A stretch of 64,000 bases of DNA. It comes from Eukaryota sp. GEM-RC1. Its lineage: Eukaryota. The DNA is taken from the NCBI GenBank assembly GCA_040285855.1, contig JAUFOQ010000006.1, positions 1,984,001-2,048,000 on the forward strand. The letters run 5' to 3'. Within the stretch, counting starts at the first letter, position 1, and each line of letters begins with the position of its first letter. Positions 1-56,440 of the stretch are shown here, one piece after another. The position numbers and the translations under genes are program-made. The notes beneath the pieces were generated by a model. That model did no database searches. It had not been told where the DNA came from and saw only the letters and a program-made list of their open reading frames with translations.

Positions 1-3000
1 CAATTTTTTTGGAACTGTGATGGCTGATTTTTTCTTGGTTTCCATCTAGATTTGTTAATATCTGCCTTTCTCTCCCCAGCAGTGTATCGGAACACCTTCC
101 ATTTGTCACGCCTTTTCCACTTTACAGGTTGTGGGTTAGTGTCTTGCTTCCAATCATTTAATTGTTTTTTCATTTTTTCAAACTTCCCCTTTTCTTAGAA
201 GATAATGGAGCAATCTTTCTTTTTCTAACTAGGGTAACTGGCTTGGGCTCAATTTCCTTCTCACTTGAGGAATCATCCTTCTCAACTGAGGAATCAATAG
301 ATTGTTCATTGGAAGTAAGATCAATTTCTGTAACACAAGCATTGGCCATTCCATTTTCTATCAATTGTTTTGTTTCATCGACTTCAAATTTCTCACACGC
401 CTCTTCCTCATCAGTTTTTAAACTGGCACAATACATGAGATCATGTTGGTTGGGGTCAACAGCAACAATTCTCTTAGATTTTAAATTCAGCTCTTCAATT
501 TCATCTTCACTTAAGGAATCAATATAACGCTCATTTGAAGCAAGATTAACTGCTATAACATTTTCACGGGCATTTCCATTTTCATCAAGTAAATCTTTCC
601 TCATCATCAACAAACTACAACTTAAACCGTCTGACAAAATTGAAGTGTATTTAAAGTCATAGGATAATGACTCTGGAATAGCCTGAGGTTTTAATACTGA
701 ATTCCAAATAGGTTTCCGTACATCATTATAGTTATAGGGAAGATCCCTACAAAATATTTCGTGAAACCATTGCGTATCGAACCTGATATGATTTGGAATT
801 AAAGATTTAGACAACGGGAAAGGATTGTTTGCTCTTACACCAGGACAATAGTCTTCAATGAGACGGTTCAAATATAATGCATGACTTAAAAAGTATAACG
901 GATCACTCTTTTCGGCATAGTAGATCGTTTTCTCCATCTTTCCTTCAAAATAATTAAACAAATAATTGAAGAATAATATACTCAAGTGAGATTCCGGATT
1001 GGTAAAAACTTGCTTGTCATCAAAATTAATTTTGGAAATTTCACCATTAATGATCAATTCTCTAACTTCATTAATCCTTTGACAGAGTTCTTGTCTTTGG
1101 GTTTTGTCAGTAAGAGCTTCCATTCTCTCTTTCTTTTGAGTAACCAAGTTAAAGACTTGAAAAACATACTCATGAAAGTGTTGGCTCATGTTGTTCTTAT
1201 AATTAGTAATAATTTCGGTTGCAACGTAACCGAGAGGGTTAGACAAATATAGTCCACTTGGAAACACGATCCTATCTCTGCCAACCATTTCACCAGCAGT
1301 TTCTAACAGAGGGATGTAGTTTGATAGGAAGTGTTGGGCGAACTCCTTCTTTGTAGTTGTTGTTTTTGCATTAGAAATGATGTTTTGTAAAGAGTTTTCC
1401 ACAGTTTTAATATGATCAGTACTGTTGAAAAATTGGTGATTTGGAATCCACATCATGGCCAACAGTTGTGACATTGGAGTCAACTTAAAGTAAGCTCCCC
1501 AGTCTGGTAATTCAAATTTGGTAGTTTGAATTTTAGTAAAAAGGTCAAGTTCAGGTTCACCAGTTTCATTTTCATCACCGTCTTCTTCTAAAATATGGCT
1601 GTCTTCTTCTGAAATTTCGGATTCAATTGTACGATCCAAACCAAAATCAGGGTCTGAAGTCACAGGCAATTCAGTTTCTTCTTCTAATTGTTGAGGCACA
1701 AACTCTTCACTTAAAACTTCTGTTTGTTCAGTGTCTGAAACTTCTGTGTCTGTTTCAATTTCTTCTTTAACAGTGAAAATGTAGTCAGATGGAGGTAGTA
1801 TCTCTTTGACCTTGTCGAAAATTAGAGAGTTGTGAAACTTAGTTACGAAAAAATGTTTCAACATATGAGTACCACGAACTCTGACTTGATGAGCTCTCTT
1901 AGCACAAGACTCCATCCAATTGGCTTTAGTCTTTGATACAACATTATCTAATCGTTTCTTCACTGTCTTCAATGGTGGTCGTTCTCTTAATTTTTGCTTC
2001 TTTTCATCGAGAAGATCAAAGAGAATGTATTGTATTAGAAACAACTTATTGATTGAGTTCAATAACAAAGTGGCTCTCGAAGTGTCTCTCGAAGTTTTAG
2101 ATTCCCAAAGTTCATTAAGTTTTGTTAATTCTGCTAACAATCGAATCTCCATTTCAGCTTTGGGTTTTAGTTTTACAGATGGAGCTGTGTTTTGACGTTC
2201 GTCAGTTTTAACCTTAATTTCTTCATCTGACACTAGAGGATTGTCTAAAGAGTGAAATATTCTCTTAAGGAAGATATCTTCATTGTCAAAACTTTCAAAT
2301 GTTCTTGAATGATTATTCATGTCCATCATAATTGTTGTCACGTTTTCCAAAAACCGATCTCTTCTAAAGACATACAACTTCTTCAATACTGAATTCAAGT
2401 CAAGGGAATAAAAAGGACCAATTTCCGTTGGTTTGCACCATCTATGGAACCAAGATGGAAGAGAAGAAATGTAATCATCAATTGTATAATCAATGTCAAT
2501 TTCTAATTTTTTACATCGTGATACTAAGAACGGAAAAGTATCTAAATGCCAATCATAACTTATTAACAAACTGGGCTTGTTAAGATTTAAAAATGTAATG
2601 AAATTTGTTAACATTGATTTTTCAGTTGTAAACGTGTGAACTACACAATTAGGAAGTGAAATTTCTGAAACATTATGGGTGAATAGGTGAGTTTCATTTG
2701 CAAATTTATCATGGGTAAACTGAAGAGAGATTGACACAATTGGGTCTAAATCTGGATCACGTTGAATTTCAAAAGTAGTATCCTGAATTTGTGGAATACC
2801 TTCTGAAGTTGATTCAATCTCTTCGTCTACTTCTGGAACCTGTTTAACTCGAACGACTTTAAGATTCAAGCGTTCAGGATCTGAGATCACACTTTTTACC
2901 TCAATTACACAGAACTTTTGTGGTTGTTTGGGTTCTTGTTCTGGCTGCACTTTAGGTATTGACGGAGGTGACTGAGATGGCATTGTCTGTTTACTTTCAG

Positions 3001-4630
3001 AAACAATTCTTTGTTTTCGTGTTTGAGGAGTAAGACCTGATTGACTGAGTGGATCTCTGGTCCTGATTTTTTTGGAGACACGGATAGGTGTGACAGGAAC
3101 GGGTTTTAATACTGTAGGTGGTAATGGACTGGCTGGACTGATTTTTGATTTTCGTTTTGCAGGAGTAGCACCAGATGGCTCTCTTGGTTTGGACTTACGT
3201 GACTCAGGATGATCAACAGTCGTTACCGTTGGTGGTACAAAATAATTAATAATAGTCTCTCGAACTGAACCAGCATCAATGTCCTTGTTAGCGTTCTGTA
3301 ATTCATCTTTTACAGCTGAAACGTTAACTATATTGCGATAGTTCAAAGCATGTACAAATATTCTGATATACTCAAGGACATAGACTCCTCAGTCATTAGG
3401 TGTTTGTTTCTGGGTAACAGGTACAATGATAGGCCTATACTCAAGCACACTAAGTGCTGAATTCACTGTTGATAAGAACACATTGAAGCTACCAGATGGA
3501 CATTCTACGTTTTCTTCATCTAGATAAAAATCATTAGTGTCGTAATTTGGATCAATGAACAACCACTTTCTGTGTCGACAGTCGATAATCAACAACCCCC
3601 AGTGATAACCTCTGGTACCTGTATTATTAATAACAGGAGCAATGAAATATCGGCAATAACCATTATTTGTCAATTGTTGTATGATAAACTTCGTGAGTAA
3701 AACAACATCAAATTGTTGAGTGGTTGTATCCACAGCATTGTGCAACATTAGAATCGGAGAAATAAAGCATTCAACAGGATAATTATGTAATTTTAAGAGA
3801 TACAGACAATACTGATCAATAACTTCATCATCGATCCACTCATCAGGCAACAAAGTCTGTAAGGCTGATTCAGAAATCGGTCCTGGATTGGACTCAATAT
3901 CACCATCAGCGGTGAGGTCTTCTTTGAATGGATGACGGGAGGAGAAAACTATACGTAATATGAGACACAAAGCAGAAATAGATGATGAAACAACACAAAG
4001 GATCATCTGAGGAATATTACGAGACGAAGTCGGGGGTATGATGGAAAGCACATGAACACAATTCACATAGGCTGTTTCACTAGCGGAAACGAAAATAATT
4101 CTCCAACATCTCATTATACTACCTTGGTCTTGAGGAGCGTGTGAGAGTGAAGTAGTAAGGCGGCAGGCGGAAGAGTAACTCCAACATCTCATTATACTAC
4201 CTTGGTCTTGAGGAGCGTGTGAGAGTGAAGTAGTAAGGCGGCAGGCGGAAGAGTAACTCCAACATCTCATTATACTACCTTGGTCTTGAGGAGCGTGTGA
4301 GAGTGAAGTAGTAAGGCGGCAGGCGGAAGAGTAACTCCAACATCTCATTATACTACCTTGGTCTTGAGGAGCGTGTGAGAGTGAAGTAGTAAGGCGGCAG
4401 GCGGAAGAGTAACTCCAACATCTCATTATACTACCTTGGTCTTGAGGAGCGTGTGAGAGTGAAGTAGTAAGGCGGCAGGCGGAAGAGTAACTCCAACATC
4501 TCATTATACTACCTTGGTCTTGAGGAGCGTGTGAGAGTGAAGTAGTAAGGCGGCAGGCGGAAGAGTAACTCCAACATCTCATTATACTACCTTGGTCTTG
4601 GAGAGCGTGTGAGAGAATTGATGTCGACAT
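1..4630 (-). CDS. Putative polyprotein: repeat leader / 2A / Ulp1-like protease / PolB exonuclease-like domain / Fanzor (TnpB-like); one in-frame TGA, one frameshift, truncated by the window edge
   Basis: ORFs 3389..4654 and 170..3346 are in the same frame, separated only by TGA at 3389-3391 (..QKQTPND*GVYVLEYIRIFVHALNY..). Motifs: DIESNPGP; WIDDEVID..HWGLLIID..FID; DPIVSIS..TEKSMLTNF..PSLLISYD; YVATEIITNYKNN, PFPLSKSLIPNHIRFDT, ILSDGLSCSLL, IVAVDPN. Adding one A to the A-run at ~173-178 restores KKQLNDWK..KWKVFRYTAGER, matching the second Fanzor. First ATG is at 4630. Confidence 0.75.
3878..3928 (-). other. 2A-like ribosomal skipping (StopGo) peptide
   Basis: Translates FKEDLTADGDIESNPG|P, matching the D(V/I)ExNPG-P consensus, after a hydrophobic stretch. 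Confidence 0.8.
4101..4616. repeat. 78-bp tandem repeat, ~6.6 copies (26-aa unit SHAPQDQGSIMRCWSYSSACRLTTSL on the minus strand)
   Basis: Unit starts ctccaacatc at 4101, 4179, 4257, 4335, 4413, 4491 and 4569. Confidence 0.97.
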
Positions 4631-5141
4631 TGAAAGTAAATGATTGTTTGGCAAAGATTTCTTCCATCTATAGTAGGATATCTTACAAGTCAGTCACATT
4701 TCATATAATTCCAAACGTAAGAGCTACTAGCTATCTCCTACTTACTAGCTACTAGCTATTCACCCATCCCTCCTGACGACTAAGAACTTATGTCCACTTC
4801 AGATTTTCTGTTTCATACAAGTGTCTCATATAGATTCAGGGTTACTCTAGTGTGGACATTAATAAACATAAATCTCTCTACATAAAACTTTATCTCTCAT
4901 AAGGTCTAAAAGTAATAACATGTATATTATCTTTTAAAAGCAAACTAGTATGCCTATGTAATTTGTTTGTTGATGTTTTCTATAGTATGTTTTAAAAGTA
5001 TATGTGATAAGTTATTTTATATTGTAATTCAACGTATCTATATTCAGATTAAAGCAAAGAGAAGTTATTAATTGATGACAAATGATTTATTCATACTGCT
5101 AGTAGCTACATGTACATATCCATTGTTTATCCATAACATCA

Positions 5142-7050
5142 TCAATCTACAAAAGTTCTGATTTCATCAGGTACATAAATATCATCGCGAAAGTACTCAA
5201 TAAACTTTTTCGACAAATTCTTAAAGGAAAAAAGATCGTCGTCATGTGCCAAAAGAATCTTCAACTTGTAAACTTTTTCATGCAGAGTTCGAAGTAGTAG
5301 CATGTCAGAGGGAATGTCATATACGATGCACATGAGATTGTTTCCAATGCTACAGTCTGGATTGTTACAGATCATGTTAAATGTCACTTGTGTGGCTGCA
5401 ACAAGAAGTGCTTTGCTTTTTTCTTGCAAAAATAACTTGAATGTATTTGTTTTCTGGGGAGTTTTTGCAAGATTGCATAAGGAGAATACGGTACATGGTA
5501 ACTTTTGTTTAAACTGTCTTACGAGATCTCTACCAGTTTCAATGTTTCCAACCGTGATAATGATTTTATCTTGTGTGTTCAAGTAGTTGTTGCAAACTAT
5601 CCAATTTGAGGTGTGATACAATTAACTGTGATTTTTCCGAGCACGTGGGAATTGATGAAGATATACTTGATGAGGGAGTTGGATGAGGGAGTTCTTCGAC
5701 AGATTCTTCATCATGTGAACCCAATAAATTCACGTAGTCAGAATCCGTGTCATAATTCGGAGCTATCACATCACTTTCAGTTCTTACTTTTTTTTCTGGT
5801 TTAGTCACTTTCATAGCGTCTGATCTTCGTTTGCGGATATCTGGGAGATCTTTGTCTTCAGATATTTCGTCTTCAGAAATTTCGTGTTGGAAAAAGCCGG
5901 CCAATAGTGATTTGGAATGCTTAGAAAAAGTCCAGTCCGGTGGTGGGTTCGTAGATATTTCGGAAGAGAAGGAAGATGCAGTATCTGCCCAGCGTAGAGT
6001 CACAATACTTCCTGTGTCAACAACACAATAGATTTCGGGCTTTACGAGTGATGGGAAAATTTTAATAAGTTTGGAAAACTTCGCATTAGCAGAGACAAAA
6101 CGATTATCAGTTTCCAACGTATTCTCTTCAACATGGTGAATACATATTTCTAATCGTTCAGAAACGTATATGATATACTCGGGGTGGCCAAATAATCCAC
6201 AAGCATCAATAATGACCTCGTGTGTTCCCGTTCGAAAAATACATTCTGCAGTGGCATTAGTCTGTGTGACAGAAAACAATATACAAGGAATTATCTCCGA
6301 TAATAATTTTTTTGTGACTAATATCAGGAATCACTCCAAATTTTTTAAAGTTTACACCATTTGGAGTGGAAATGATGACATCATTGAAGTCAACACTGTT
6401 TTTGGCATAAAAAATTGATTTAGCAGTCAACAGCAGATGCATATAGAACATCTCAAATTCGATAAAGGTCGAATCAATCACACTTTCTGCTTTTGGAAGA
6501 TCATGTCTTTTAACATATTTACTTGAATCCTTGATTGCTGGAATATGGGTTAAAACACCATCTTTTCACCAATATATACATCTTTACGCCTTACACTTAC
6601 ACTACTACATTCAGTCATCACTCCAACTTCAGAAGTAAAAAAGATTTCAGTACTAAAAATCCGTGTCGCGAAATTTAATACAATGACACTACATTGATTT
6701 TTAATGGGTAAGAACACCCACATTGAAGAGGGATGAGTTGGAATGGTGCCTTGTACTGCTATTGAACTATAATCAAAATTGGGAAGATCAATTCGATTCC
6801 ATAAACAGTCATCACCAACTGTCCATATCAATACTTCTTGAGAAGCTGTCAAAACAATAAGATACAAGCCACATCTAGTAATTACTGCATTTTTAATTTC
6901 AGATGCACATGATTGTGTAGAAACAGCTGTGAAATTTAATGGATCAAATGGAGTTGATGACAACAAGACATTGGCAAGAGCAGGCTGAGGTATAGGTGGT
7001 TGCTGGACAAATAATGGTTGAAGGTCAGTTGTATCTGTCTGTAATTCCAC
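5142..7050 (-). pseudogene. Fragmented cargo ORF(s): beta-propeller-like segment followed by a degenerate helicase C-terminal (RecA2)-like segment
   Basis: Chain of ORFs 6550..7050, 6257..6481, 5566..6279 and 5142..5621. The last has QDKIIIT..FLQEKSKALLVAAT..IVYDIP, resembling HELICc. ORF 6550..7050 is in frame with the helicase across TAA 7093-7095. Confidence 0.4.
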
Positions 7051-7092
7051 AGATGAATTCTCAACATGGGATAGGGGTTCAGTTTCAGAAAA

Positions 7093-10000
7093 TTAGTATT
7101 TTCCTGAGGCAGAGTAGGTACGCATATATTCAATCAGTTCAGTTAAAACATCGCATTTGACACAATTTGGACATTCAACATTGTTGCAAAATTTAAAGGT
7201 ATCAACATATTGGTCGATTGAAAACGGCTTGAGACCACCAATGTCATAAGATATGTGCTGTAGATCAATAACTGATCCAGGTTGTACATTTGTAACAAAT
7301 GTGAGTTTCTGTTGAAGTATCGCGATCTGTTCAAATAGTGATGATGGAGAGATTCTTAATCTTTCAGCCAGATATAGAATAAATCGACATCGATTAAGAC
7401 AACCAATGACATTGATCAATTGAGATAATACATCTGCATCATAATCATAGTCAAGTTGATCACCGTCAACATTAAGAATTGCAATCTTTTGTTGTTCAAT
7501 AGATCCCTTCGTAAAATTGAGAAACATTAGTTGGGTGAATAAATTTAATAGTGTAGGCTGAAAGTAGCAACATAATAGGGGAAACTGTTTTTGTGATGAC
7601 ACAAAAACACCAGAGTAATTGTAGCAACAAGAGGCAGGTAAACGAGTGAAAAGTGAATTGTCAAATTTGAAATCAATGCCGTCTACAGAACCATTCAGTG
7701 TAGTACACTTCAAGGGTTTTTGATAATAATTGTTTTCAAACATCGGTACCATATTAAGTTCTAGTTTTCCATTACGATCACAAACAAGATGTTTATTTAA
7801 CAAATTGGCAATCTTTTGATTAGTAAGACGCTTTTGTTTATCCATATCATGAAGTGGTTTATAATTACCAGAATCCAGACCGACCGAACAATGCACGTCA
7901 TTGATGAACGGCAATATGCGTTTATGAAATTTTGAAGCAACCTCATTTTCGAACATTTTGGCAAAGACGAGAGGTGTTACAGTGTTGTTGGATTTGTAAA
8001 GGGTTAGAAACAAACGCTTTGGATGATCTTTAGGTAGCAAGTGTAAATGAACACTGTTTTTCAGGTATTTTGAAAAACATAGAACATCATTCAAATCATT
8101 GAGGTCGAGTGGTAGTAAATCCCGCATCATTTGTTGAAAGATACATTCAATAGGAACTTCAGTTGGAGATGTGAGGACTGTTGACCTTCGTGGACTACGG
8201 AACAAAATTGTATTGTTAGGATAAGATGAAATAAACAACTGGGTCAATTTTTCTGATTCTGTTAAGTAGCAAAGTTGTTGATAGAATTGCTGATTCTGGA
8301 AAGCAGACCATTCATTATTATTCTTATCGATAAAAGTACGGTTGAGATTAAAGTTTCGAAATTTGAAGCGATTAGTGAGTAACACCTTAACACGATCTGC
8401 ATTATTAAGCATAGTTTCAAAAATGAATTCCAAGGAGTCAATATGGCCTTTAAATGAATCATCGACTTGTTGTTTCCACTTGATGATCTGATTAATTTTT
8501 CTAATTAGTGTATCACAGAAAAACTTGAGAGATTGGATATTTAAATAGTCCAGAACTTCAACATTGATTGTACCAGATAGTAATCGGAACAAAAATTTTA
8601 ACATAACATTTAAATCTGAATATCCATGATCAGCGTCATCAGCAAGATACAATTTCAAAAAGTTCCCAAATTTAGCAACTTGATTTACACTATCTGTATG
8701 AAACTTGAAGTTGAACAATTGTGTATCAAATGCACATAATAGGACCAATCCCGGAATAACTTGTTTTCCAAAAAAACAATTAAAAACAAAATGAAAATGT
8801 TCATGAGAGTCACAAAACAAAATTCCCATTCGACCCAATGGTGTTAGTCCATCTACGATATATTCACTTTCCATGATGTTTCGAAGATATAATGAATGCA
8901 TTGCTACATCCAAGAGATCATCCTTTGGTGGATCAGGCATTGACTTGATAAATTTTCGTGGTGTGTTTGAAATCCTTTTGACTGTTAAAAGAAAATCTTC
9001 CAAGGGAGAATTAAGAATTTGGGGCAATTTAGTTTGATGCCTGAATTCGTTGCCGATATATTCAAAGTCAAATAATCTGATACATATACCAGGCATGGTT
9101 CGACCAACTCTCCCAGCACGTTGAATTGCTGAGGACTTTGAAACATGGTGGAGAATCAATTCCTTTTTATAATTTGGAATTCTTTCAAGTCCAGTGTCCA
9201 AAGCGATCACTGCATTGTCAATTGTGAGGGAAGACTCTGCAATGTTCGTAGAAGCAACTATTTTAAATTCTTTGTTTTGAGGTTTACTTGTTGCCTTCTG
9301 TTGATCATCTCCACTCATGTCAGAATCTTTCATTACACGATTTCACTAGAGCATCAGCCTCAAAAGCACCAGGTAAAAATACAATGACTGTTACACCTCT
9401 CATATCGATTGAAACGTTCCAATAATCAAGGATAATATCATAAATGGAACAAAGTATTTCTGTCAGTGCTCGTGTATTAATGATTGAAGGTTTTACAAAT
9501 TTGGAGCACATTTTCTCGAAGTTATTTCTATATGTCCGTACAGCTGCACGTAAATCATTTTGATGACTCAAAACAGCAACACCAAATTCGGATGGAAACC
9601 CAAGCGTCAGCTCGTCAGTCCACTGACACGTATCAAAATTGTTAAAGTCAAGAACATTCAGTGTTCTTGTGAAGAAACCTGTATCAAATGAATACATAGC
9701 TTGTTGATCAATGATGTCAAAGTCACATGAATTTTTTGAATCAAAATATGAGAATATTGAATTCACTTCACCTGATTTTGAACCCAATGTAGCTGAGGCA
9801 AATCCACGTACAACCGAAGAGTCTTGCAAATTCAATTTCATTGACGTTAAAAGCAGATCAACATCCATCGACCTTTCATGAAATTCATGGATGATGACAA
9901 CTTTGAATTTTGATTGAAACATTTTGGGATTTGCCATCAGATTGACAGTAAGCCCAGTTGTCTGATAATGAATCAGTGTACTGGCAGTGATATTATTGTC

Positions 10001-10849
10001 ACCTCCACCAAGTTGGAAAGCGGCAATCGGTAGATCAGACGTGAATTGACTACCTTCTCGTGTACCAGATGATTTATTTAAAAATTGGGCAAGAGCTCTG
10101 CAAGACATTCGGGTTGGTTGCGACACAATAACATTTGAGAGAAAAGCCATTGCAAAAATGATTGGGGAAATTGTGGATTTTCCTGAGCCAGTTGAGCCAG
10201 TAATTACGTATGGAAAATCCGATGGCTGTTCTTTATAGCAGGAAATGCAATGGTTAAGTAATGTCACAAAAGACTCTTGACCATCTGCAGTTGATACAAA
10301 AGATAGCTTGTGTTTAGTCTTAGCTTTGTAAAGAATGTTCATCATGCAAGATAAATGAACAATACTGATAAGGTTATGGTTCTTGACATTTTCTATCCAG
10401 TGCGGAAAAATTAAATCGCAAACCTTTGAAAGAAAGATATCGCCCAATTCGGTAAACTCTTTCTTCAGAACGTTGTATTCAGAGGGTGGAGTTGGATGAA
10501 ATATTTCGGGGAAACTACTTTTCGAAGTTACATGACATACTTACTTCTGCCATACGATCTTCTTCCATAAGAGATTCTTCCATACGATCTTCTTCCATAA
10601 GAGATGAAACATGGTAGAACGAAAACCACTTTGTACAATACTGCCTTGGTCTTGAGGAGCAGAGTACAAAGAAGCGACGACAGCGGAGGAAACAGAGTGT
10701 AAAGAACTTTGGACAATACTGCCTTGGTCTTGAGGAGCAGAGTCCGCAGTTGTTACGATGAAAGGATTCATGTAAACGAAAGAATTGTATCTACATGAAG
10801 ATATCTCACCACACTTCTTTCTGATAGTTCTTTCCCACAGACTTTTCAC
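7093..10849 (-). CDS. DEAH/RHA-family helicase-like protein (frameshift at ~9330; probable 27-30 nt intron near 10515-10544)
   Basis: GSTGSGKST (Walker A), VSQPTRMS, IIHEFHERS (degenerate DExH), SAT, VFLPG, STNIAESSLTID, QRAGRVGR. ORF 10541..10849 is in frame with 9320..10447, and the intervening TAA lies within GTAAGT...AG. Confidence 0.75.
10635..10743. repeat. Two copies of a 31-bp motif, 78 bp apart, related to the 4101-4616 repeat
   Basis: acaatactgccttggtcttgaggagcagagt at ~10635 and ~10713; its core differs from atactaccttggtcttgaggagc in the 78-bp array by one base. Confidence 0.9.
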
Positions 10850-10999
10850 AACAAAATGCCTTCAGACTGACTGGTCATTCTAGTGTCTATGCAGTTATGT
10901 GCCCAAACTCATAATCCTTGACTCTCCTGACTCCTTCAAACTATGATCAATGACAAATATTACAGGCCAGTCTTGTTTATTACTATGCTTTATAGGAAT

Positions 11000-11674
11000 C
11001 TAAAGTTCAAAAGGATTCTTCGTAAAATTGGATTTTTTGACAAGAGACTTAAGAGGAGGGAGTGGAGTCGACGTAATCTCAGTTGTTCCAGTTGATTCTG
11101 ACTCTAACTCATTGCTTGAGTTACTTGATTCTTCTTCATCATTCAATAATTTTTCTTCTCTAACTGTCTTTGGAGATTTAACTTTCTTCATCTTAGCAAG
11201 TCTTGCAGAACATGAAACTTTTTGATGTTGTTCATGTTCTGCAAGATCAGACAAGTCTATTGCTGAGTCAGTTTGATCTTGAATCAAAACAGTATATAAA
11301 TTTTGAGATGACAAGGAATTAGTGGTACCATTCTTTTCTTCAAGAATATGAGTTTCTTTGTTAATAAAGAATTCAATGTTTTCCTTAAGATTATCACCAA
11401 CAACATTTTTAAACCATGTTGTATTGTTGGTGGACACTGCGATATGAGAAGTACTATCAGCAGCTCGGGTGATTAAGATAAAATCTCCATTGATTCCGAG
11501 ATTGTAAGATGAAGTTGAAGGAGTTGATTTTGTCTCAGTAAAAGAAAAGACATTGTATACATCTTGATGTTTAGATGCATACTTCCTCTGATAGGCAGAA
11601 AGACGATGTTTCCGAGACAAAACGTTTGTTGATGAGTTCATGCAAATTTTGCCGGTAAACAAATTTTCCTTCAT
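11000..11674 (-). CDS. Hypothetical protein (element cargo)
   Basis: 224-aa ORF with no recognised motif. Confidence 0.4.
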   Translation of the reverse strand: MKENLFTGKICMNSSTNVLSRKHRLSAYQRKYASKHQDVYNVFSFTETKSTPSTSSYNLGINGDFILITRAADSTSHIAVSTNNTTWFKNVVGDNLKENIEFFINKETHILEEKNGTTNSLSSQNLYTVLIQDQTDSAIDLSDLAEHEQHQKVSCSARLAKMKKVKSPKTVREEKLLNDEEESSNSSNELESESTGTTEITSTPLPPLKSLVKKSNFTKNPFEL

Positions 11675-12464
11675 CGTAATCTCAATGTCTTTGAACGAAC
11701 CTTCTCTTGAAGTGATGTCAAGTCTGTTAGCACAGTTTCATGAACAATGCAACAGAAGTTTGATAACCTTATGCAATTGTTGTCATTGTACTTCGTTAGG
11801 AGATAATTATGTGACCACATCTATATCAACTTCCTTAAAAGATCTTGTGTCAACTCTGTTCTACCCTTCATCAGAAACTTCTAATGTTGAGGAAGTCTTG
11901 ATCAGAGTATCTCATCTTTGGCAGTTCACGCCTCTACTCAACAGTTTTCTCAACTGGACATGTTTAATTGATATTCTTCTTCATTGTTGTCTCAATGATG
12001 ATACTTGTTTGTTTTTGAAGCATTTGCATTTGCTGATCAATAGTTTTGCTTGTTTAGTTGGTATATTATTTTGTCACAGTTCTCGATCTTCTACAACTTT
12101 ATTAATTCCTGCACTCCTCCAAAGTTCACTTCATGATGATGGTCATTTAAGACTTGTTTATTTTAAAAAGATTGAGGATAAACTGTTGTTATTACTTGAG
12201 GACAATGATTATTGTTTGTCTGTTTCAAAGTTTGTTTTGATTTTTGTTAACATTGTTTTAGCAAAAGGTAATAGTAATGATTATACTGGAGTTGTCAATT
12301 TGTTTAGTTTTATTTTAGAACGAAGTGATTTTGTTGATTTGAAACATGTTTTGACTTGGAAAATGTCAGGTAATGATGAGATTGATGTGGATAATTTATG
12401 TGATGAGTTGTTGCAGTTTATTGATAGTGTAGTGAAGTATGTTTGTAAGTATCTGTGTAACTAG
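11640..12464 (+). CDS. Hypothetical helical protein (element cargo, antisense to Fanzor)
   Basis: 274-aa ORF ending immediately before the 14-bp array. Confidence 0.45.
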   Translation: MQILPVNKFSFIVISMSLNEPSLEVMSSLLAQFHEQCNRSLITLCNCCHCTSLGDNYVTTSISTSLKDLVSTLFYPSSETSNVEEVLIRVSHLWQFTPLLNSFLNWTCLIDILLHCCLNDDTCLFLKHLHLLINSFACLVGILFCHSSRSSTTLLIPALLQSSLHDDGHLRLVYFKKIEDKLLLLLEDNDYCLSVSKFVLIFVNIVLAKGNSNDYTGVVNLFSFILERSDFVDLKHVLTWKMSGNDEIDVDNLCDELLQFIDSVVKYVCKYLCN

Positions 12465-12473
12465 ATAAATATT

Positions 12474-12660
12474 GTTACACATCTTGTATTACAGATCTTG
12501 TAAAACATATATTGTATTACTGATCTTGTGTTACAGATCTTGTATTACAAATGTTGTGTTACAAATGTTGTGTTACACATCTTGTATTACACATCTTGTA
12601 TTACGAATCTTGTGTTACAAATCTTGTAAAACACATTTTGTGTTACAAAAAGCACTTGTA
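12474..12660. repeat. 14-bp tandem array (TTACACATCTTGTA-like), ~13 copies
   Basis: atcttg and variants at 14-bp period: 12481, 12495, 12523, 12537, 12579, 12593, 12607, 12621. Confidence 0.92.
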
Positions 12661-12760
12661 GTTTTGTAAATTCAAATATAAAATAGTCAACAATTCAAAA
12701 GATCGAAGGTGAAAAAAATATCAATGTCAACAATTCATTACACATACGACACTTTCATTT

Positions 12761-12920
12761 CAAATGTTGTCATTACAAATGTTATATCACCAAATGTTGT
12801 CATTACAAATGTTGTCATTACAAATGTTATATCACCAAATGTTGTCATTACAAATGTTATATCACCAAATGTTATCATTACAAATATTGTCATTACAAAT
12901 GTTATCATTACAAATATTGT
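12761..12920. repeat. 15-bp tandem array (CAAATGTTGTCATTA / CAAATGTTATATCAC), ~10.5 copies
   Basis: Direct reading of the 15-bp period; shares the TTACAnATnTTGT core with the 14-bp array. Confidence 0.92.
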
Positions 12921-12923
12921 ATT

Positions 12924-13067
12924 TCAGAAGATCCTGGCAGTATCTTCTTGACTAAGTCCTAAGAACAAATACCTCCATACAGCACGTGCTTTTAAGTCTT
13001 CTGAGGGTTTTAGGGGAAGAGATCGAAAATCTTCGTGTGAATGAAGAAGATCCCAAGTCAAACACAT
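12924..13067 (-). pseudogene. Tc1/IS630 transposase N-terminal HTH remnant 1
   Basis: MCLTWDLL..PSEDLKARAVWRYLFLGLSQEDTARIF aligns by eye with MGYTYDML..ASEDTIVRAVWTYYWLGKTQAQIAEYY of the transposase at 55014. Confidence 0.7.
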
Positions 13068-13159
13068 TGTGATGTAAAAGAAGTCTTCAAGAACGGAAGA
13101 GAAGGCGAGGAAGATGAGGGAAAATGTTAGGTCTAAAATGTGAAGATCTAAAATGCGGA

Positions 13160-13309
13160 TCAGACCTTTATGCATCTCGCAACTGCATCTTGGCTTTCAC
13201 CTAAGATGAGGTGAGTGTAGACGGCCCTGGTCTTCGTATCTTCAGATGGACGTCGACTGAGTTGTTTTAAGTCAATTCCTTGTAATAGCATCTCAAAAGT
13301 AAGTCCCAT
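13160..13309 (-). pseudogene. Tc1/IS630 transposase N-terminal HTH remnant 2
   Basis: MGLTFEMLLQGIDLKQLSRRPSEDTKTRAVYTHLILGESQDAVA aligns with MGYTYDMLFDANIDIRQLCCNASEDTIVRAVWTYYWLGKTQAQIA. Confidence 0.75.
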
Positions 13310-13434
13310 TGATGGATAACCAAGGAAATTTGGGTTGGTGAAAGATGTGCTGGTGAGAAAAATTTTACCACCAACTAGAACTAGAATATGCAACCAAAGT
13401 GAAAACCACTGACCGACTTTCAACTTTCAACCCA

Positions 13435-48699: not shown

Positions 48700-49192
48700 C
48701 TATTGCAGATGCAGATGGAACAAATGCTTTTCATTTTTGGAGGTCGAAATTGCATTTCCTCCTAACGTGCTGGAGTAGTTTTCATTTTGGGTGAATACTA
48801 CTAGTAGTATCCCCATTTTACCAATTCCCCCACACACCCAATTCCCACAAACTCTTTTTACTTATAGGATACACTTTTGAGATGCTCTGGGACTCAAGAC
48901 TCGACTTAACGAGCATGTCTATCCACGCTTCGGAAGGCACCAAAGTGACGGCTGTTTGGTCCTATCTCTGGACGGGGAGAACCATCTTTCTTTCTTCCTT
49001 TTCTCGCAAAGTATGATCTCTCGCTGGATAAACAGTGCATATTCTCCTTCTTATGATAATCTTTCATCTTCTCATTCTGACCGTCACAAGCTGAAAGCAT
49101 ATGTTGACTTGGAAATCTTGATTCATTATGTTTTTCTTTTGTTCATAAAGTTAAGCCATATATGCCAGTCTATTATCACTATCTATTGTCTT

Positions 49193-50376
49193 TTAGTTGT
49201 CACAAGATGTGTAATACAAGATTTGTAACACAAGATGTGTAATACAAGATGTGTAATACAAGATGTGTAATACAAGATGTGTTTTACAAGATGTGTAATA
49301 CAAGATGAAACTATCAAAATTACCTATATTGTCCAATCTTTTCAAAATTAAATATAATTCAAATAAAACACACATACCAGTCTTTTCATCATTTTTCAAA
49401 TACTCTTTCAAAACATGAAACAATTCCACAAGCACATCACTACAATAACGTTCATCAACATTATCCTTATTAATCACATCGGTAATGTAACAGTTCCTTA
49501 TTGTTTTCACTTCCATACTTGATGCAGATTCAGATCCAATACAATCTAGTACATTATCGACAATTGACTGAATTCCAATAGTTAAGTCCACTCTCAATTG
49601 TTTGTAAGTAGCAACACGATTATACTCCAAAATAGGAGACAATGATATTGTTTCATAAGTCACATTGTCAGTTTGTTGATATTCACATATGGAATCACAT
49701 TTTTCATTTTCAAAGCTTTCAGTCTGAACTTCCTTGAGACAAAATCGTTTTTCATCATCAATAAGAGGAAACACTTGGGAACTTTTTCTTTCTATACCAG
49801 CACTGACATTCTTATTTAATAATAAATTCTTCGTTGGTAAAGGGGTTTTCTTCAAACGGGGAAGCGATGGTAGAGTAATGTTGCCTCGTGGTAATTGAGG
49901 AAGTTTAGACTTATTGACACAAATCTCAGCAGAATTTTTGTTAAAAATTGAGTCACAATTAATAAATTTGGGAGGAATATTAGTTTCATCTTCTTCAAGT
50001 TCATCATTTACAACAAAATCATCTAAACTTGTTGAAATTGTATCATTATCAGATTCATCACCAGAATCGGATCCTGATAGTACAGCTTCTGTTTCAAATA
50101 AATTTGATTTTTCGAAATGGTTTAAACGATTTTTTCCAAGTCAATAATTTTTTCATCAACATTATCAACAATAACTTCATCAACACAATGAACATCTTCA
50201 GGAACAACAACATCATCCGTAATTGGTTCACTCGATTCTGCACAAAAGTTTGCAAACAATGAATTAAAATGATTGAAATCTCGTTGAAGACAATGTTGAT
50301 TTCCCAAAACATACAAATCAATAGTTGATGGCTTAACAGGATGAAAAGTTGAATAATACCATTGATACAATTCCAA
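49193..50376 (-). CDS. Hypothetical protein antisense to Fanzor (probably one frameshifted gene)
   Basis: ORFs 50122..50376 and 49193..49855; ends within the 14-bp array. Confidence 0.4.
49201..49307. repeat. 14-bp tandem array, ~8 copies; reverse complement of the 12474-12660 array
   Basis: caagat at 49203, 49217, 49231, 49245, 49259, 49273, 49287 and 49301. Confidence 0.93.
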
Positions 50377-50401
50377 ATTTGGTACTGGATAACTTCTTAC
50401 A

Positions 50402-53350
50402 ATGCTTAAAATCTTTAAACTCCTCCAAGACCGTCTCAGTGTTATCCGAAATCAAAGAGCAACAGTAAGGGGTTCTAATTTTTGAAACATCTCCTTATTT
50501 GTGAGTTTGAAACACGTGGATGTGAATTAAATTTGATGAATCGTCATTACTTTCGGCAATATCTCTTAGAATCTTCTGTTTCGGAATCAAAAGAACGAGA
50601 TTTAATGTACGAACATGATTTTTTGGAGAAACGACTTCGTGAAATGGAGTTAATGTATGAACATGATCTTTTTGAGAAACGACTTCGTGAAATGGAGTTA
50701 ATGTATGAACATGATTTTGATTCGTATCCATCAGAACTTTCTGATTTGTTGGCATTAAATGAACGTAAATTAATGAAGAGCCATGATACAATGCCTGATT
50801 CTGATGATGCATCTGTTTCTGATCCGTTAGAACCTTCTGATTTACCCCTCTACACTAAGTTTTCAGTAGTCTTACCAGATTTGAAAAAACTGCTTAAACA
50901 CGATTCTATTAGACAAGTATTGAGACGGATGTATGTGAAGAAATCAACTGGTTCTTCAATTACAGAGTCAGAACTAGAAATGTCAAGAGCAGAGGCTCAA
51001 AAAGTGATTGACGATTTCCAAAAATCTTCAAGACTAGAAATGATCGAAAAAGAAAAAATTGCATTTCACTACTTGAACAACTTTTCTCCACTTCTACAAC
51101 AGTTGTCTGATGAAATTGGAACAAATCAAATTTCATTTCCTGATTCTACGTCAATGTCTCCCATATTTCATTACACTGCCAAACAAATTTCTACAAATTA
51201 TGCCAACAATATGGTCAAAAATTTTCATGATTATGTATTCAGATTCTTTAATCTGGTAACAAGAAAGAAAGTAAGACTTGAACAGATAAATGATCAAGTT
51301 GATAAGAAAGAATTGATTTCGAAATTGAATTCAGTCAGAGATTCGATTATCGATGGAAATTTTGATGACATTCCAATTGCAGATCACGAGATTTTCCCTA
51401 ATCCACGTGAAGAACTAACGTTGAGGTTTTTTTGCGTATTTGAAATTTTCATTGTTTCCAATGTTTTCAAAAAGAACATTTACTATTTACAGAAAGCAAA
51501 GCCGACAGAGTTAATTTCTCATGCTCTGTACATCAACCGAACTATACAATCTTTGTGTTTGGTTGATGGAAAACCAATCAGTGTAAACAACCCTTTTCCA
51601 ATGACGAAGACATTGATTCCTCAGCATATTCGTTTGGACACAGGTTGGATGAATGATAGATTTGTTCATATACGTGGCAAAAATGCAGATGAAATAAGAA
51701 AAAAGGTCTTTGATCAGGTCCTTACTGACAAAGCTGTGGCACCAACAAAATCATTTGTCTTTAGATATTCTTCAATTCTGACAGATGGAATTTCTTGTTG
51801 TTTGGTTTTAATGAGGAAAGATTTGGTTGATGAAGATGGAAATACTTTCAAAGATTTTACTGCTAAATCTCTCGGAACTGCGGAAAGATACATTCACTCT
51901 TTATCAAATGAGAATATTCACGAATTACAATTGAAAGAAAAAAAGAATTGTCGGTGTCGATCCCAATGAATATGATTTAATGTATTGTGTTTCAGAAAAG
52001 ACAGTCGATGAGCTTAAAGATGAAGATATTTCAGAAAATAATCCACTCAAAAAACGATTACCCTCAGAAATCAGAAGTAAGAAAAGAGGAGGAATTAAGA
52101 AAAGAAAGAAACAATTACAAGATTGGAAAAATTCGAATAATGATGTAAAATCAAAGAAAAAGGCTAAGCACAAATGGAAAAAGTTTAATTATACAGCTGG
52201 AGAAAGAGCTTACGATAGGAAATCTAAAAAATATCGTAAATCTGAAAATAGAAAACTGAAAGAATTTTCTATCGAATCACCAGACGAAACTGTCACTGAA
52301 AGACAACTTAAAGATTTTTTGGTTCTCCACTCTGATAGAATTCTTGTAACAGGAAGAGATGTCACTAACCAATTCTCCAATGCTGTATCAAACGGGGAAA
52401 GAAAGTCGTGTTTCAGTGACACATTTGGAACATATATTAAAGAAGCTGAAAGATATAACGTATATTTGAGTTCTTTCTACGAAGATGACTGGTTTAGAAA
52501 GAGGAAATTCCAAATTTATTCTAATAACCAACGTTCGGAGAAAAACATGCTGGAACGCTTCAATTTAACATATGGACCTCCAGAAGATGTCGTCATTGGG
52601 TATGGGGATTGGAGCTCAAAAGGTAAAACAAGAAAGGGCAAAACCTCTACTGTTAGAGGAGTGGAAATCCGTAAAATGTTAAGAAGATATGGATACCAAA
52701 TATTTCTTGTTGATGAATACAGAACAAGCAAGTGTTGTTCCAAATGTGCTAAGGAAAAATCAACTTTCGTAGAATGTGAAAATGTTTCGGAACTAAAGGT
52801 TCTTGGTCCCAAAGGTAAGAGACAGCTAAGAAGGAAGAAGAGAAAGTTAAGAAGAGAAATTTTGCTCAAAAACAAACAAGATCCTCTAAACCAGCGGGAT
52901 TTTTGGAAGCAGAGTGGGAGGTGAAGCAGAAGTCATTGGAAGAAGAAGCTAAATCCACACCCTGGGGACTGGTAAAGTGCTCAGATGCTGATTGTGGTAC
53001 TTATTGGAATAGAGACCTAAATTCTGCCATTAATATCTATTCCATCATTGAAGCAACGATCAATGGTCAAGGTAGGCCATCCGCTCTCGAGAGATCTAAA
53101 ACTCAAACAACAGATCTCAAGAGTGGTAAGGATACTTTGGCGAGAGACCAGAAGAAGAAGAAGACTGCGACCAAAAAGAAGAAAAACTTCAACAGGAAAG
53201 AACAAAACTTCGACAGGAAAGAAGAATACATGTGGAAATTGTGGCCAAGAAGGTCATAACAAAAGGTCATGCCAGAATCCACCAAAAGAAATGAGTTCGC
53301 CTAAAAGAAGAAGCGTAAAGTCAGTCAAGAAGAAGAAGGTCTCTCGTTAA
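50402..53350 (+). CDS. Fanzor1-type (TnpB-derived) RNA-guided nuclease with C-terminal CCHC knuckle; four homopolymer frameshifts
   Basis: VRGSNF(L)KH; YTAKQISTNYANN; PFPMTKTLIPQHIRLDT; ILTDGISC; IVGVDPN (RuvC-I, shifted frame at ~51950); IGYGDWS; VDEYRTSKCCSKC; CSDADCGTYWNRDLNSAINI (RuvC-III); CGNCGQEGHNKRSC. Confidence 0.85.
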
Positions 53351-53445
53351 TAACTTTAGTGTACTTTTAACGGTACACAGCGCAGTGGGCTTAGCTCACT
53401 GAGTGTCTGTGGTTTCGATACTCTAATCAAAATGAAAATTAACAA
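53351..53445 (+). ncRNA. Candidate Fanzor omegaRNA 3' scaffold / element end
   Basis: Hairpins GTGTAC..GTACAC, CAGTGGGC-TTA-GCTCACTG and GAGTGTC..GATACTC immediately after the Fanzor stop codon. Confidence 0.5.
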
Positions 53446-53504
53446 AGTTGTGTACTTTGGGAATACTTGTATCCATTTGAGTTGAGAACCACAGTGGATA
53501 TCAT

Positions 53505-54264
53505 CAGGAGTTGGAAAAATTGCATTGCCAATTAATTGTTCTCAGTTTTTCAGAGACAATGAATTATTGCAATTATCACATGTGCTACAATTAATTGGGC
53601 AATTAATTGGTCTGTGATAAATTGACCATTTGCACTTAAAAGAAAGTTCAAAAGTTTGTTCTTTATGATAACAAAACTAGTTTTTCAGTGTACAATCAGT
53701 GTTCATTAACGTCTTGCAGGATATTGTGCGCTTAATACCGGAAAATTACCTATTGAGTTCGTTTTCTACAAAGTTGAACGGTCTGAGGCCTTTAATAACC
53801 AACTTCATTCATTTAAAGTATTCTGAGTATTTGTCTTCAATTACAAATGTGCCAAGAGTGCTCATTTGCCTTTCATCAAGTCATTGTGCTCCTGTTGAAA
53901 ATTAACATGCTTTGTTCTCAGATGGTTGGAAAGATTTGTTCACACGTTACCTTTCAATATCATTGCTTTGCACTTACAAGTGTAGTGTTGCCCTTTGACG
54001 TGAGCACTTTTTCCAGAATCGGACGGAGAAAAGAAAGTCAAGCACAGAGTACGATTGTATGTAGGTAAAGGAAGGAAAGTGTTTTATTGTACATCTGCAT
54101 TCTGTTATCTGTTTGTAATTTCTATTCATTTCGTGCATTTGAAACCCCCGTGATAATTGCAATTAATTGCCCAATTAATTGTCGTCCTATTTTGGGGCCA
54201 ATTACTTATTGCAATTAATTAATTGGCAATAATTTAATTGGCAATGCAATTTTTCCAACTCCTG
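53505..54264. mobile_element. hAT-type MITE (760 bp)
   Basis: 31-bp perfect TIR CAGGAGTTGGAAAAATTGCATTGCCAATTAA; 8-bp TSD GATATCAT at 53497-53504 and 54265-54272; subterminal CAATTAATTG motifs. Confidence 0.92.
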
Positions 54265-55013
54265 GATATCATATCAAAGTTAGTAATTCTTCTACTGTGG
54301 AATTCTTTTGGTGTGAATAATCCTGGAATTTGGACCTTTTAATTTGGAGACTTCCCCCTTTTCTGTTTTCCCCCCTTTTTGGAGGATCAGTTTCTGTCTC
54401 TTCTCCGTGTCTTTTAGTCTGTGTCTGTCACCTGAGATGTCGTGTTCGGTATAGTGTATATATCAGGGAAACTTGAACTGATTTCTTTCATACAGATTTC
54501 CATCTTCTATGAGCTAGGGCGTCGTTTCACATCTATGTTATCGCTTTGATACTTAATGAGTACATATTGGTTCTACATCTTCGATATCTTGAGGAAGTTC
54601 CTTCTCTTTCAACAACAACACTCTCTGCTGCAACATTACATTGACAACACTTATCAACCGGTGAATGTTCTGGTAAGTAGAGAAGGTACAATTCTTATGT
54701 GAGACATCTCAAATCCACGTCAGTCATAGCTTTTATTTCAAAAAACAATAAAGATCCATCAGCATCTGTTTACACGGTATGGAACAAACCCTAGATTTAG
54801 TGCTGACCTCGATTTAGTGCCGGTCCAAACAGTGGCACTATAGATCTTCAATAAACTATCCCTTTTATTCATTCGTTACTTAATGGAAGTTGTTGTTTCA
54901 ACACTACAAAATAGCATCTAACAGTGTATTAGTGACATCTGACTGATAACCGGAAACAGAACGTCTTGATTGATAATCTTAAATCTAGATTTGCCTGCGT
55001 TTTCTGTTTCTTT

Positions 55014-56102
55014 ATGGGGTATACTTATGACATGCTCTTCGATGCCAACATCGACATTCGTCAACTGTGCTGTAACGCCAGTGAAGACACAATTGTCCGA
55101 GCTGTTTGGACCTACTATTGGTTGGGTAAAACACAAGCTCAAATTGCTGAATACTATTGTGTGTCTCAGCCTACAATTAGCCGTTGGATAGCTTCAGCTT
55201 TTGAAAACAAGAAACCAAATGAGGAAGAACTTGATCCTCGTCTTAAACTTGATGCTGCTGATTTGTCCTTCATTCAAAACACGCTACATCTTCATCCGCT
55301 TCTGTATCTTAGAGAAATTGCATCCCTTGTTCACAAAGAGCGTGGCAAAAAAGTATCTGTATCCACTATTCAGAGAGCCCTGGTCAGAATGGGTTACACT
55401 CATAAACGTTGCAGAGCACTTGTTCGCAGAGCCAAGTTAGAACTAATTTTATCATTTGAAAACAGAATAAACCACCGATGTATTGTACTTATTAACCAAC
55501 TGGTTTTCATTGATGAAGTTTCATTTAGAGCATCAGACTTTCAAAGGTCTTCAGGTTGGTCACTGAAGGGTAACGAGATTGTTGTTGAACAAGTTGATCT
55601 CGCTTATCACAACATTTCTGCATGTGTAGCAATTACACAACACGGCTTTTTAAGTGCATTTATCCAATATGGGCATTTCTCTCGATTGCAATTTGTGAAG
55701 TTTATTCAAAATCTCTTATTTCATGGATATTTGGGAACAAGTGGTTTTGCTCGAAGCTGTATTATTTTGGACGGTTGTAAAATCCATGTAGATTTGAATA
55801 TTTCTCAGGCCCTGAGAAAAGCAGGAGTTGAGTATTTTGTGTTGCCTCCCTATTGTCCCGAAAGCAACCCTACTGAGGTATTTTTCAAAGTGTTTAAGTC
55901 AAAAGTACTAGACTTTTTTGAACATAACCCACGAGGAAACGAACTAGTAGATTTGTTTCGAGTTCTTGATACAGATATGCGGTTCTCTTGTCACAAAATA
56001 TTTGCACACTGTGGGTGGTCAAATGAAACCTTCTTCAAGTCAACTTACAGGACCAATTCAATGCTTGCTGCCAATTTAGCAGAAAAGACCACTAATAAAT
56101 AA
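55014..56102 (+). CDS. IS630/Tc1/mariner-superfamily DDE transposase
   Basis: HTH VSQPTISRW; LYLREIA..VSVSTIQRAL; catalytic VFIDE, IILDG, LPPYCPESNPTE. TIRs not found. Confidence 0.9.
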   Translation: MGYTYDMLFDANIDIRQLCCNASEDTIVRAVWTYYWLGKTQAQIAEYYCVSQPTISRWIASAFENKKPNEEELDPRLKLDAADLSFIQNTLHLHPLLYLREIASLVHKERGKKVSVSTIQRALVRMGYTHKRCRALVRRAKLELILSFENRINHRCIVLINQLVFIDEVSFRASDFQRSSGWSLKGNEIVVEQVDLAYHNISACVAITQHGFLSAFIQYGHFSRLQFVKFIQNLLFHGYLGTSGFARSCIILDGCKIHVDLNISQALRKAGVEYFVLPPYCPESNPTEVFFKVFKSKVLDFFEHNPRGNELVDLFRVLDTDMRFSCHKIFAHCGWSNETFFKSTYRTNSMLAANLAEKTTNK

Positions 56103-56440
56103 GTTATTTTTTATTTTCCTTGAATTACTAATCAGTGGTAGATGGGTTTTGATAACCAAAGAAAGCATGAGGATCAGGAACTTCGGAGGAACACTTTCAG
56201 CCTGTTGCATGGAAGAGGAAACCGAGAAAATTAATTAATGCATTCAATGATGAATTCAATTGGAAATTTAAAGATGGTGAAGGTTACACTTATAAAAATG
56301 ATATGGGTTGTATTTTAAGTGTATCATTCATGATATCACATCTAACTAAACCTAATAATAACTGTTTCTTTGACAAGCTTTCTATATTCGTATCCGAAAT
56401 TGATATTCTTCTAAATTCAAAAGTTAGTAATTCTTCTGCT

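Follow-up and report, generated by a model that had tools for sequence, protein, structure and literature searches.

The window, a 64,000-nt stretch of contig JAUFOQ010000006.1 of Eukaryota sp. GEM-RC1, carries on its + strand a Fanzor1 gene (50482..53350), which lies in four frame pieces and encodes the TDG, DPN, DEYRTSKCC and RDLN motifs followed by a C-terminal CCHC zinc knuckle. Excerpts of PMC10711439 and PMC13565253 define Fanzor1 by a RuvC D-E-D triad, a DP(G/N) motif and a glutamate six residues before the zinc finger. In the frame pieces the triad was found as VDPN, DEYRTSKCC and RDLN, with all three acidic residues kept, and the WED TDG motif as ILTDG within 50482-51969. A family profile of 22 relatives matched SpuFz1 (1e-93), PpFz1 (1e-91) and GtFz1 (4e-53) with no other strong match, and the paralog P0286 matched the SpuFz1 structure 8gkh (E 6e-15). 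Skoliomonad metamonad isolates are the source of the named proteins closest to it: P0141 (90%) and P0142 (97%), their cluster mates P0286 and P0287, and sister clusters of 26, 12, 5, 4 and 4 members. Used as single queries against viral contigs, the window Fanzor fragment and the window transposase retrieved no relatives.

The frame breaks fall at homopolymers (A7 at 51938, T5 at 52900, A5 at 53182). The T-run is also where three paralogs break, with another run length and a shift into another frame, a similar kind of break is seen in the host ATG9 gene, and the assemblies of the named relatives were built from nanopore reads with Illumina correction, according to a portion of PMC11316075; the three breaks are therefore likely assembly errors. 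In P0286 the CCHC knuckle is in frame and the protein ends in KVSRK*, which fixes the natural stop of the window gene at 53348-53, in agreement with the original prediction, which had placed it at 53348-50 (KVSR* here). A later stop reached through an NLS-like frame was ruled out, as P0286 keeps the frame that ends at 53350. Within the coding region, just after RuvC-III, a strong hairpin (53070-53140, z −3.11) occupies the site where the omegaRNA of relatives begins, possibly as a vestige or a 5′ extension.

An IS630/Tc1-type element around the gene

Upstream of the gene, a left end was located at 48771..48799 (+ strand), consisting of a TG flank (48771-72) and a TIR-like motif from 48773, with a rival boundary at TA 48776-77. 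The motif is identical in 21/27 positions to the left end of a second Fanzor element at 13411 on the − strand and in 18/27 to a third copy at 54295, which is preceded by TA, and similarity falls off outside it. It is followed by a decayed N-terminal fragment of an IS630/Tc1 transposase (48864..49150, +), detected by tblastn with the intact transposase of the window (47% over 40 aa, one frame break), and by a 14-bp tandem repeat (49188..49321, +) that recurs at 12475-12647, on the opposite strand and within the second Fanzor element, matching at up to 90% over 106 nt. The order of terminal motif, decayed IS630/Tc1 transposase start and 14-bp tandem repeat is common to both elements, and their transposase-start remnants matched the intact transposase with E values of 4e-10 (48773 element) and 6e-6 (13411 element). 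An IS630 DDE transposase, the mark of Tc1/mariner-IS630 elements, is accordingly present as a fragment in the element and as an intact homolog at 55014-56102 (362 aa, passing the NF033545 cut-off), the latter being a candidate mobiliser of the Fanzor elements. Such a layout is that of Mariner-borne Fanzor1 elements as described in part of PMC3627910. The alternative of a Helitron 3′ end at CTAA 53422-25 was rejected, as no Rep/Pif1 helicase was seen and the transposase remnant is of IS630 type.

The intact transposase has a near-identical named paralog, P0140, and a search for a right TIR of its own element found none. The 2.1-kb segment that contains it is flanked by a 20-bp direct repeat (54274-54293 and 56417-56437; one A-run difference, 87% over 30 nt), the second copy of which lies just before the ATG9 start. 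A divergent host ORF starts no more than about 30 bp from each Fanzor left end (RhoGAP at 48755 for 48773, and an ORF at 13399 for 13411).

Hairpins downstream of the stop codon

The original prediction had proposed an omegaRNA scaffold of three stems in 53351..53460, with the element ending near 53425 and the next 15-20 nt serving as the guide. All three stems were recovered on the + strand by sequence check and folding: stem 1 (GTGTAC 53359-64 with GTACAC 53373-78), stem 2 (CAGTGGGC-TTA-GCTCACTG, 53383-53401, one G-U) and stem 3 (GAGTGTC 53401-07 with GATACTC 53417-23, one G-U), the last sharing G53401 with stem 2. The region 53351-53430 was predicted to fold at −24.3 kcal/mol (z −3.06), a stability reached by 0/200 shuffles, by none of 746 GC-matched 80-nt + strand windows and by 7/1598 windows of any GC. 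The patch described as GC-rich is so only mildly (44% in 53351-53425 and 38% in the whole of 53351-53460, against 37.6% in the window), and the suggested CACAG/CTGTG extension of stem 2 is present in the sequence but incompatible with stem 1, with a pairing probability of at most 0.02. Rfam searching gave six matches, all far under the gathering scores and none of them on 53351..53460, and the exact 26-mer of stems 2-3 had no match in metagenome contigs.

In longer contexts stems 1 and 2 persist, as the SL1 candidate (53356..53378, +; a TTA lead, a 6-7 bp stem and a loop ending in CG, pairing probability 1.0) and SL2 (53380..53404, +; an 8-bp GC-rich hairpin whose probability was 0.98-1.0 whatever the context folded). 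Folds have to end before about 53490 for stem 3 to be stable; once the sequence reaches 53494, its probability is 0.0.

SL1 in related Fanzor1 loci

A set of 160 related loci (L001-L160) from giant-virus and metagenome contigs was compared, all at 28-44% identity and none close. Of these, 105 had a recognised RuvC-III motif, and in 87 of the 105 an end motif could be detected. Removing redundancy left 38, and the alignment comprised 36 of them, without L060, whose tail is a near-duplicate, and L160, whose end was mis-called. The aligned relatives share a TCA lead, a 7-bp SL1, a loop ending in CG and an A-rich linker, and their helices pair the right TIR back onto the RNA as far as the TA. Their SL1 covaries at 7/7 pairs, with 95% of cells paired in 26 distinct rows. 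Many relatives have matching left TIRs, many have TA-flanked TIRs, and 18/160 loci carry an IS630-like transposase. One or two extra hairpins are inserted after SL1 in L002, L083 and L144. In these contigs, IS630-type Fanzor1 elements end in an omegaRNA family that covaries well and has both short forms (L008, L086) and hairpin-expanded ones (L002, L083, L144).

With redundant loci counted, 122 relatives had sufficient DNA downstream; a descriptor of SL1 (Y-C/T-A lead, 6-7 bp, a 6-8 nt loop running from T to CG) detected 95 of them, with four off-site matches. In 128 kb it gave a single match, at 53356, with a descriptor relaxed after the site had been seen: the fit needs the invariant C to be a T and the loop widened to 8 nt, and the window SL1 folds with 7 bp including a wobble. 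With the strict lead there was no match in the window, and without any lead there were 13. Two covariance models built from giant-virus relatives, R1 (6-nt loops) and R2 (7-nt loops), gave no match at 53356; R1 also missed the insertion-bearing relatives, and R2 found one of ten six-class loci from the R1 training set. A mixed-class alignment was discarded with its CG out of register. Because the descriptor was relaxed post hoc and the models, although negative, are insensitive across loop classes, homology of stem 1 to the SL1 of relatives is no more than suggestive. A further hint from peptide sequence is that VLDDT, the C-terminal peptide of one skoliomonad family, is the SL1-encoded peptide of L071, as if skoliomonad Fanzors used the same SL1.

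The probable right end and the predicted full-length fold

Beyond SL1, which starts 6 nt past the stop, TIR-like motifs ending at 53441 and 53494 were found. The inner one, a 14-nt inverted copy of the left-end core (53428..53441, −) that ends in TA, could be either an inner right-end repeat or a rival right boundary. It agrees with 48776-89 in 13/14 positions and was the top non-training match among about 128,000 positions to a 14-nt matrix from two left ends; the 14-nt pattern matched three times in the window against 0.09 expected, having been written from those same three. The outer one, our preferred right TIR (53468..53496, −), runs to 53494 with a 2-bp TG flank at 53495-96 and agrees with the three left-type ends in 15/27, 16/27 and 14/27 positions. 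With a 26-nt matrix over about 128,000 positions, the 53494 end ranked 17 and the rival end (53441/53444) ranked 160. The first six bases at 53494 are the same as those of the TA-flanked end at 54295, and the TG flank is as at 48773.

When the sequence was extended to this outer end, 53352-53496 was predicted to fold as SL1, SL2 and one long terminal stem (53407..53494, +), in which 53407-15 pairs with 53486-94 and 53420-23 with about 53479-82, capped by a hairpin at 53443-59, all with probabilities near 1. The fold had a z of −4.26 (0/200 shuffles) and was better on the + strand than on the − strand (z −3.41). Its energy fell from −35.0 to −43.6 as the end was moved from 53490 to 53494 and was flat beyond, and the stability of the 145 nt was equalled in 2/1444 GC-matched and 16/3178 of all windows. 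An exact 8-nt complement upstream of the end was found for 34/9115 random ends, and an internal inverted copy of equal quality for 33/3000. At the 53494 end, 9.0 of the last 12 nt are paired and the distance from lead to end is 141 nt; among the relatives, at least five of the last 12 nt pair back in 35/36 (range 2.9-11.6), with lead-to-end distances of 102-139 nt. A terminal helix with the TIR adjoining the guide is predicted for an end at 53494-96 and is absent for one at 53441.

Several features weigh against the outer end. It was picked post hoc among five candidates tried, and the 60-shuffle z values are noisy, from −3.2 to −4.3 for ends 53492-53504 and −3.2 at 53467. The left and right TIRs agree in 15/27 positions, whereas family copies are 90-97% identical, and the flanks are TG, unpaired in the fold, versus the TA expected of Tc1/IS630. 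If the element ends at 53494, the TA-flanked 13/14 motif would, by analogy, be an inner repeat. Such an IR/DR arrangement occurs in other Tc1 families; at the left end, no inner repeat was seen. On balance, repeats and modelled folds together suggest that the boundary probably lies at 53494-96, some 70 nt further on than first proposed, and not at 53425.

The chief rival places the ends at the inner motif, giving an element from 48778 to 53439 that ends at TA 53440-41 (TA duplicated), with a scaffold of about 90 nt made of the three original stems and a guide at 53442-56. Here the 13/14 match has an in-register TA at either side, as is canonical for a Tc1/IS630 duplication, and each stem has a probability of at least 0.9 in the span. 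Such an RNA would nevertheless lack a terminal helix, since 0.9 of its last 12 nt are paired, under all 36 relatives (minimum 2.9); a 10-bp pairing between its guide and SL1 would open that hairpin, as happens with 5/1000 control flanks; and the 9-bp helix to 53486-94 would be left as chance, besides the lower matrix rank. We consider this end unlikely, if the best of the alternatives.

Less probable still is the end first proposed, at TA 53424-25, with a 74-nt SpuFz1-like scaffold and a guide at 53426-40. The TA lies directly past stem 3, the five terminal bases match the left end, stem 3, with 7.0 of the last 12 nt paired, would act as a terminal helix, and the length fits the 75-nt SpuFz1 scaffold given in part of PMC10432273. 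But the match to the left end is 6/27 by hand count, the lead-to-end distance of 70 nt is below that of all 36 nearer relatives, and chance would have to explain why the flank holds a 9-bp complement to loop 3 as well as two copies of TIR-like sequence. The stretch proposed as guide contains the 13/14 match to the left inverted repeat, and the predicted structure runs on to 53494; this part of the original prediction is disfavoured. A pseudoknot of loop 3 with 53434-41 was rejected with a duplex of just −1.1 kcal/mol, as was a TAM of AGTR, the shared AG falling within the longer TIR.

Giant-virus relatives end in GTGTA, and the same letters at 53450-54 could mark the end here, in which case TACAC (53374-78) would close off a junction that holds stems 2 and 3. 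Although the TACAC/GTGTA letters are those of the relatives and a 10-bp helix (53372-81 with 53447-56) can be extended to about 21 bp with G-U pairs, this pairing consumes the 3′ arm of SL1, so that the hairpin is lost; upstream, the coding region gives a z of −0.47 and varies in the paralog, and the end has no left-end match and a z of −1.85. It is the most improbable of the ends weighed. The imperfect helix of about 21 bp (53358-53381 with 53447-53467), along with a 9-nt direct repeat, would compete with SL1 in an RNA that stops before 53490, and in the folding model it is a possible folding intermediate.

A reading of a different kind, about as doubtful as an end at 53425, is that the stems are non-functional, being DNA-level by-products of duplicated transposon-end motifs or the 3′ UTR of a decayed element. 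It would account for a gene broken at three places, a decayed left TIR and transposase, overlapping repeats that include the 9-nt direct repeat GTGTACTTT (53359-67 and 53450-58), a − strand that folds as well, and the lack of a covariance-model or Rfam match; yet the breaks sit at homopolymer runs, as do those of the paralogs and of ATG9, the catalytic residues are intact, and the SL1-like hairpin is placed as in the 95/122 related loci.

Because the stems follow the natural Fanzor1 stop inside a Tc1/IS630-type element, an omegaRNA is likely; position, a genuine Fanzor1 gene, the surrounding TIR element, folding and an SL1-like first hairpin all support this part of the original prediction. 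Summed over all candidate ends, the region very probably encodes an omegaRNA. The stems probably form the 5′ half of a Fanzor1 omegaRNA scaffold of about 145 nt (~53352-53496), belonging to a 4.7-kb Tc1/IS630-type transposon at 48773-53494.

Predicted guide, MITE and proposed action

Immediately downstream lies a non-coding MITE of 760 bp (53505..54264), which we take to be hAT-like, with 31-bp perfect TIRs starting with CAGG and an 8-bp target duplication, GATATCAT. Given the preferred end and the 14-15 nt Fanzor1 guide length stated in an excerpt of PMC10432273, the guide is predicted at 53497..53511 (+), its first 8 nt being the target-site duplication of the MITE and its last 7 nt MITE sequence. 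An RNA crossing the MITE through pairing of 53489-98 with 54290-99 was rejected: two element ends lying back to back explain this pairing better, and the fold of 54273-54420 has a z of +1.24.

We propose that a scaffold of about 145 nt would be transcribed from the right end of the 4.7-kb element, an omegaRNA whose expression, boundary and activity we infer. The docking site of SL1 would be the protein's RuvC/zinc-finger face, and SL2 would be an insertion that can be dispensed with. The long stem would join an internal inverted-repeat copy (53407-27) to the right inverted repeat, the helix thereby stopping at the edge of the element and the next 14-15 nt of the flank, from about 53497, becoming the guide. 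In the solved Fz1 complexes, according to sections of PMC11423790, the RuvC/TNB face is where SL1 is bound, what comes after SL1 can vary freely, and at the WED domain the scaffold is followed by the guide; for Fanzor1, a TIR with its target duplication within the scaffold and an RNA reaching some 15 nt further are described in parts of PMC10711439 and PMC10432273, the former also describing a scaffold of three stems that includes the TIR. The guide could direct the nuclease to the empty insertion site, where repair would restore the element, a homing that cleavage of the empty site promotes for TnpB (as reported in part of PMC13565253) and that is inferred for Fanzor1. The MITE would have inserted 2 nt past the element, keeping guide positions 1-8 through the target duplication and replacing 9-15, which would have left this copy without a full match to its own empty site.

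Comparison with known systems

SpuFz1, in the Spu-1 element of Spizellomyces punctatus, belongs to the same Fanzor1 protein family and, in the portions of PMC10432273 and PMC11423790 describing it, likewise has its RNA in the interval from the stop codon to the right inverted repeat, a CG in the loop of the first hairpin and a terminal stem built on the inverted repeat. Compared with those descriptions, the scaffold predicted here is about twice as long with one extra hairpin, the SL1 lead has T for C, its stem is 6 bp plus a wobble, the TIRs are imperfect with TG flanks, and the protein carries the C-terminal CCHC knuckle. The Mariner/IS630 Fanzor1 elements of giant viruses (PGv-1 type, part of PMC3627910; L001-L160) also hold a transposase upstream of Fanzor inside the TIRs. 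Their proteins show 30-44% identity, the SL1 candidate here resembles their SL1 type, and some of the loci carry extra hairpins after it, whereas their TIR sequence and the order of A-rich linker and TACAC/GTGTA closure are unmatched here. GtFz1, with a 150-nt omegaRNA, and the three-stem SfAV Fanzor1 reRNA are similar in predicted length or stem count when compared by description, and excerpts of PMC11423790 and PMC10711439 present the region beyond SL1 as unconstrained, but they belong to another host element and another lineage.

Fanzor1 omegaRNAs in Mariner-type elements are already known, so with a known mechanism the locus is useful to specialists and not surprising. If the assignment is true, these RNAs extend to an anaerobic free-living protist lineage, and a family present in many copies, with unusual extra domains, gains a scaffold that can be tested. 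The boundary matters in practice, as a construct ending at 53425 or 53441 would be without the predicted terminal helix. A literature search found no paper joining Fanzor with a metamonad, with the qualification that the supplement catalogues of PMC10432273, PMC10530073 and PMC10711439 could list such loci, and none joining Fanzor with a zinc knuckle; among the matches listed, and as far as their summaries go, work on Fanzor-exonuclease fusions appears to concern engineering.

A second Fanzor element and skoliomonad fusions

The second Fanzor (170-3346, − strand) is 37% identical to the first and runs off the window. Its element (170-13411, −) spans over 13 kb and includes remnants of two transposase starts, tandem repeats of 14 and 15 bp and a split DEAH-type helicase (7093-10447). 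The second element's Fanzor carries an N-terminal DNA_pol_B_exo1 domain (E 3e-7). An ORF of this element has a DIESNPGP motif, which we take to be 2A-like, and a tail that we take to resemble a protease; a Pfam search with that ORF gave no match.

It is conceivable, as a speculation, that skoliomonad-type metamonads harbour active, high-copy Fanzor1 polyproteins with a 2A-like skipping peptide and a DNA-polymerase-B 3′-5′ exonuclease in front and a CCHC knuckle behind, in which the knuckle would grip the extra hairpin of the long omegaRNA, the exonuclease would trim cut ends in favour of homing, and a MITE would have rewritten the distal half of the guide at the present locus. The skoliomonad Fanzors P0001, P0132, P0147 and P0288, 1200-1480 aa long, have a 2A-like NPGP motif and a PolB exonuclease domain fused ahead of the nuclease (E 2e-15 for the domain of P0132); in other Fanzors, namely P0143, the P0148 cluster and P0286, a CCHC knuckle is found at the C terminus.
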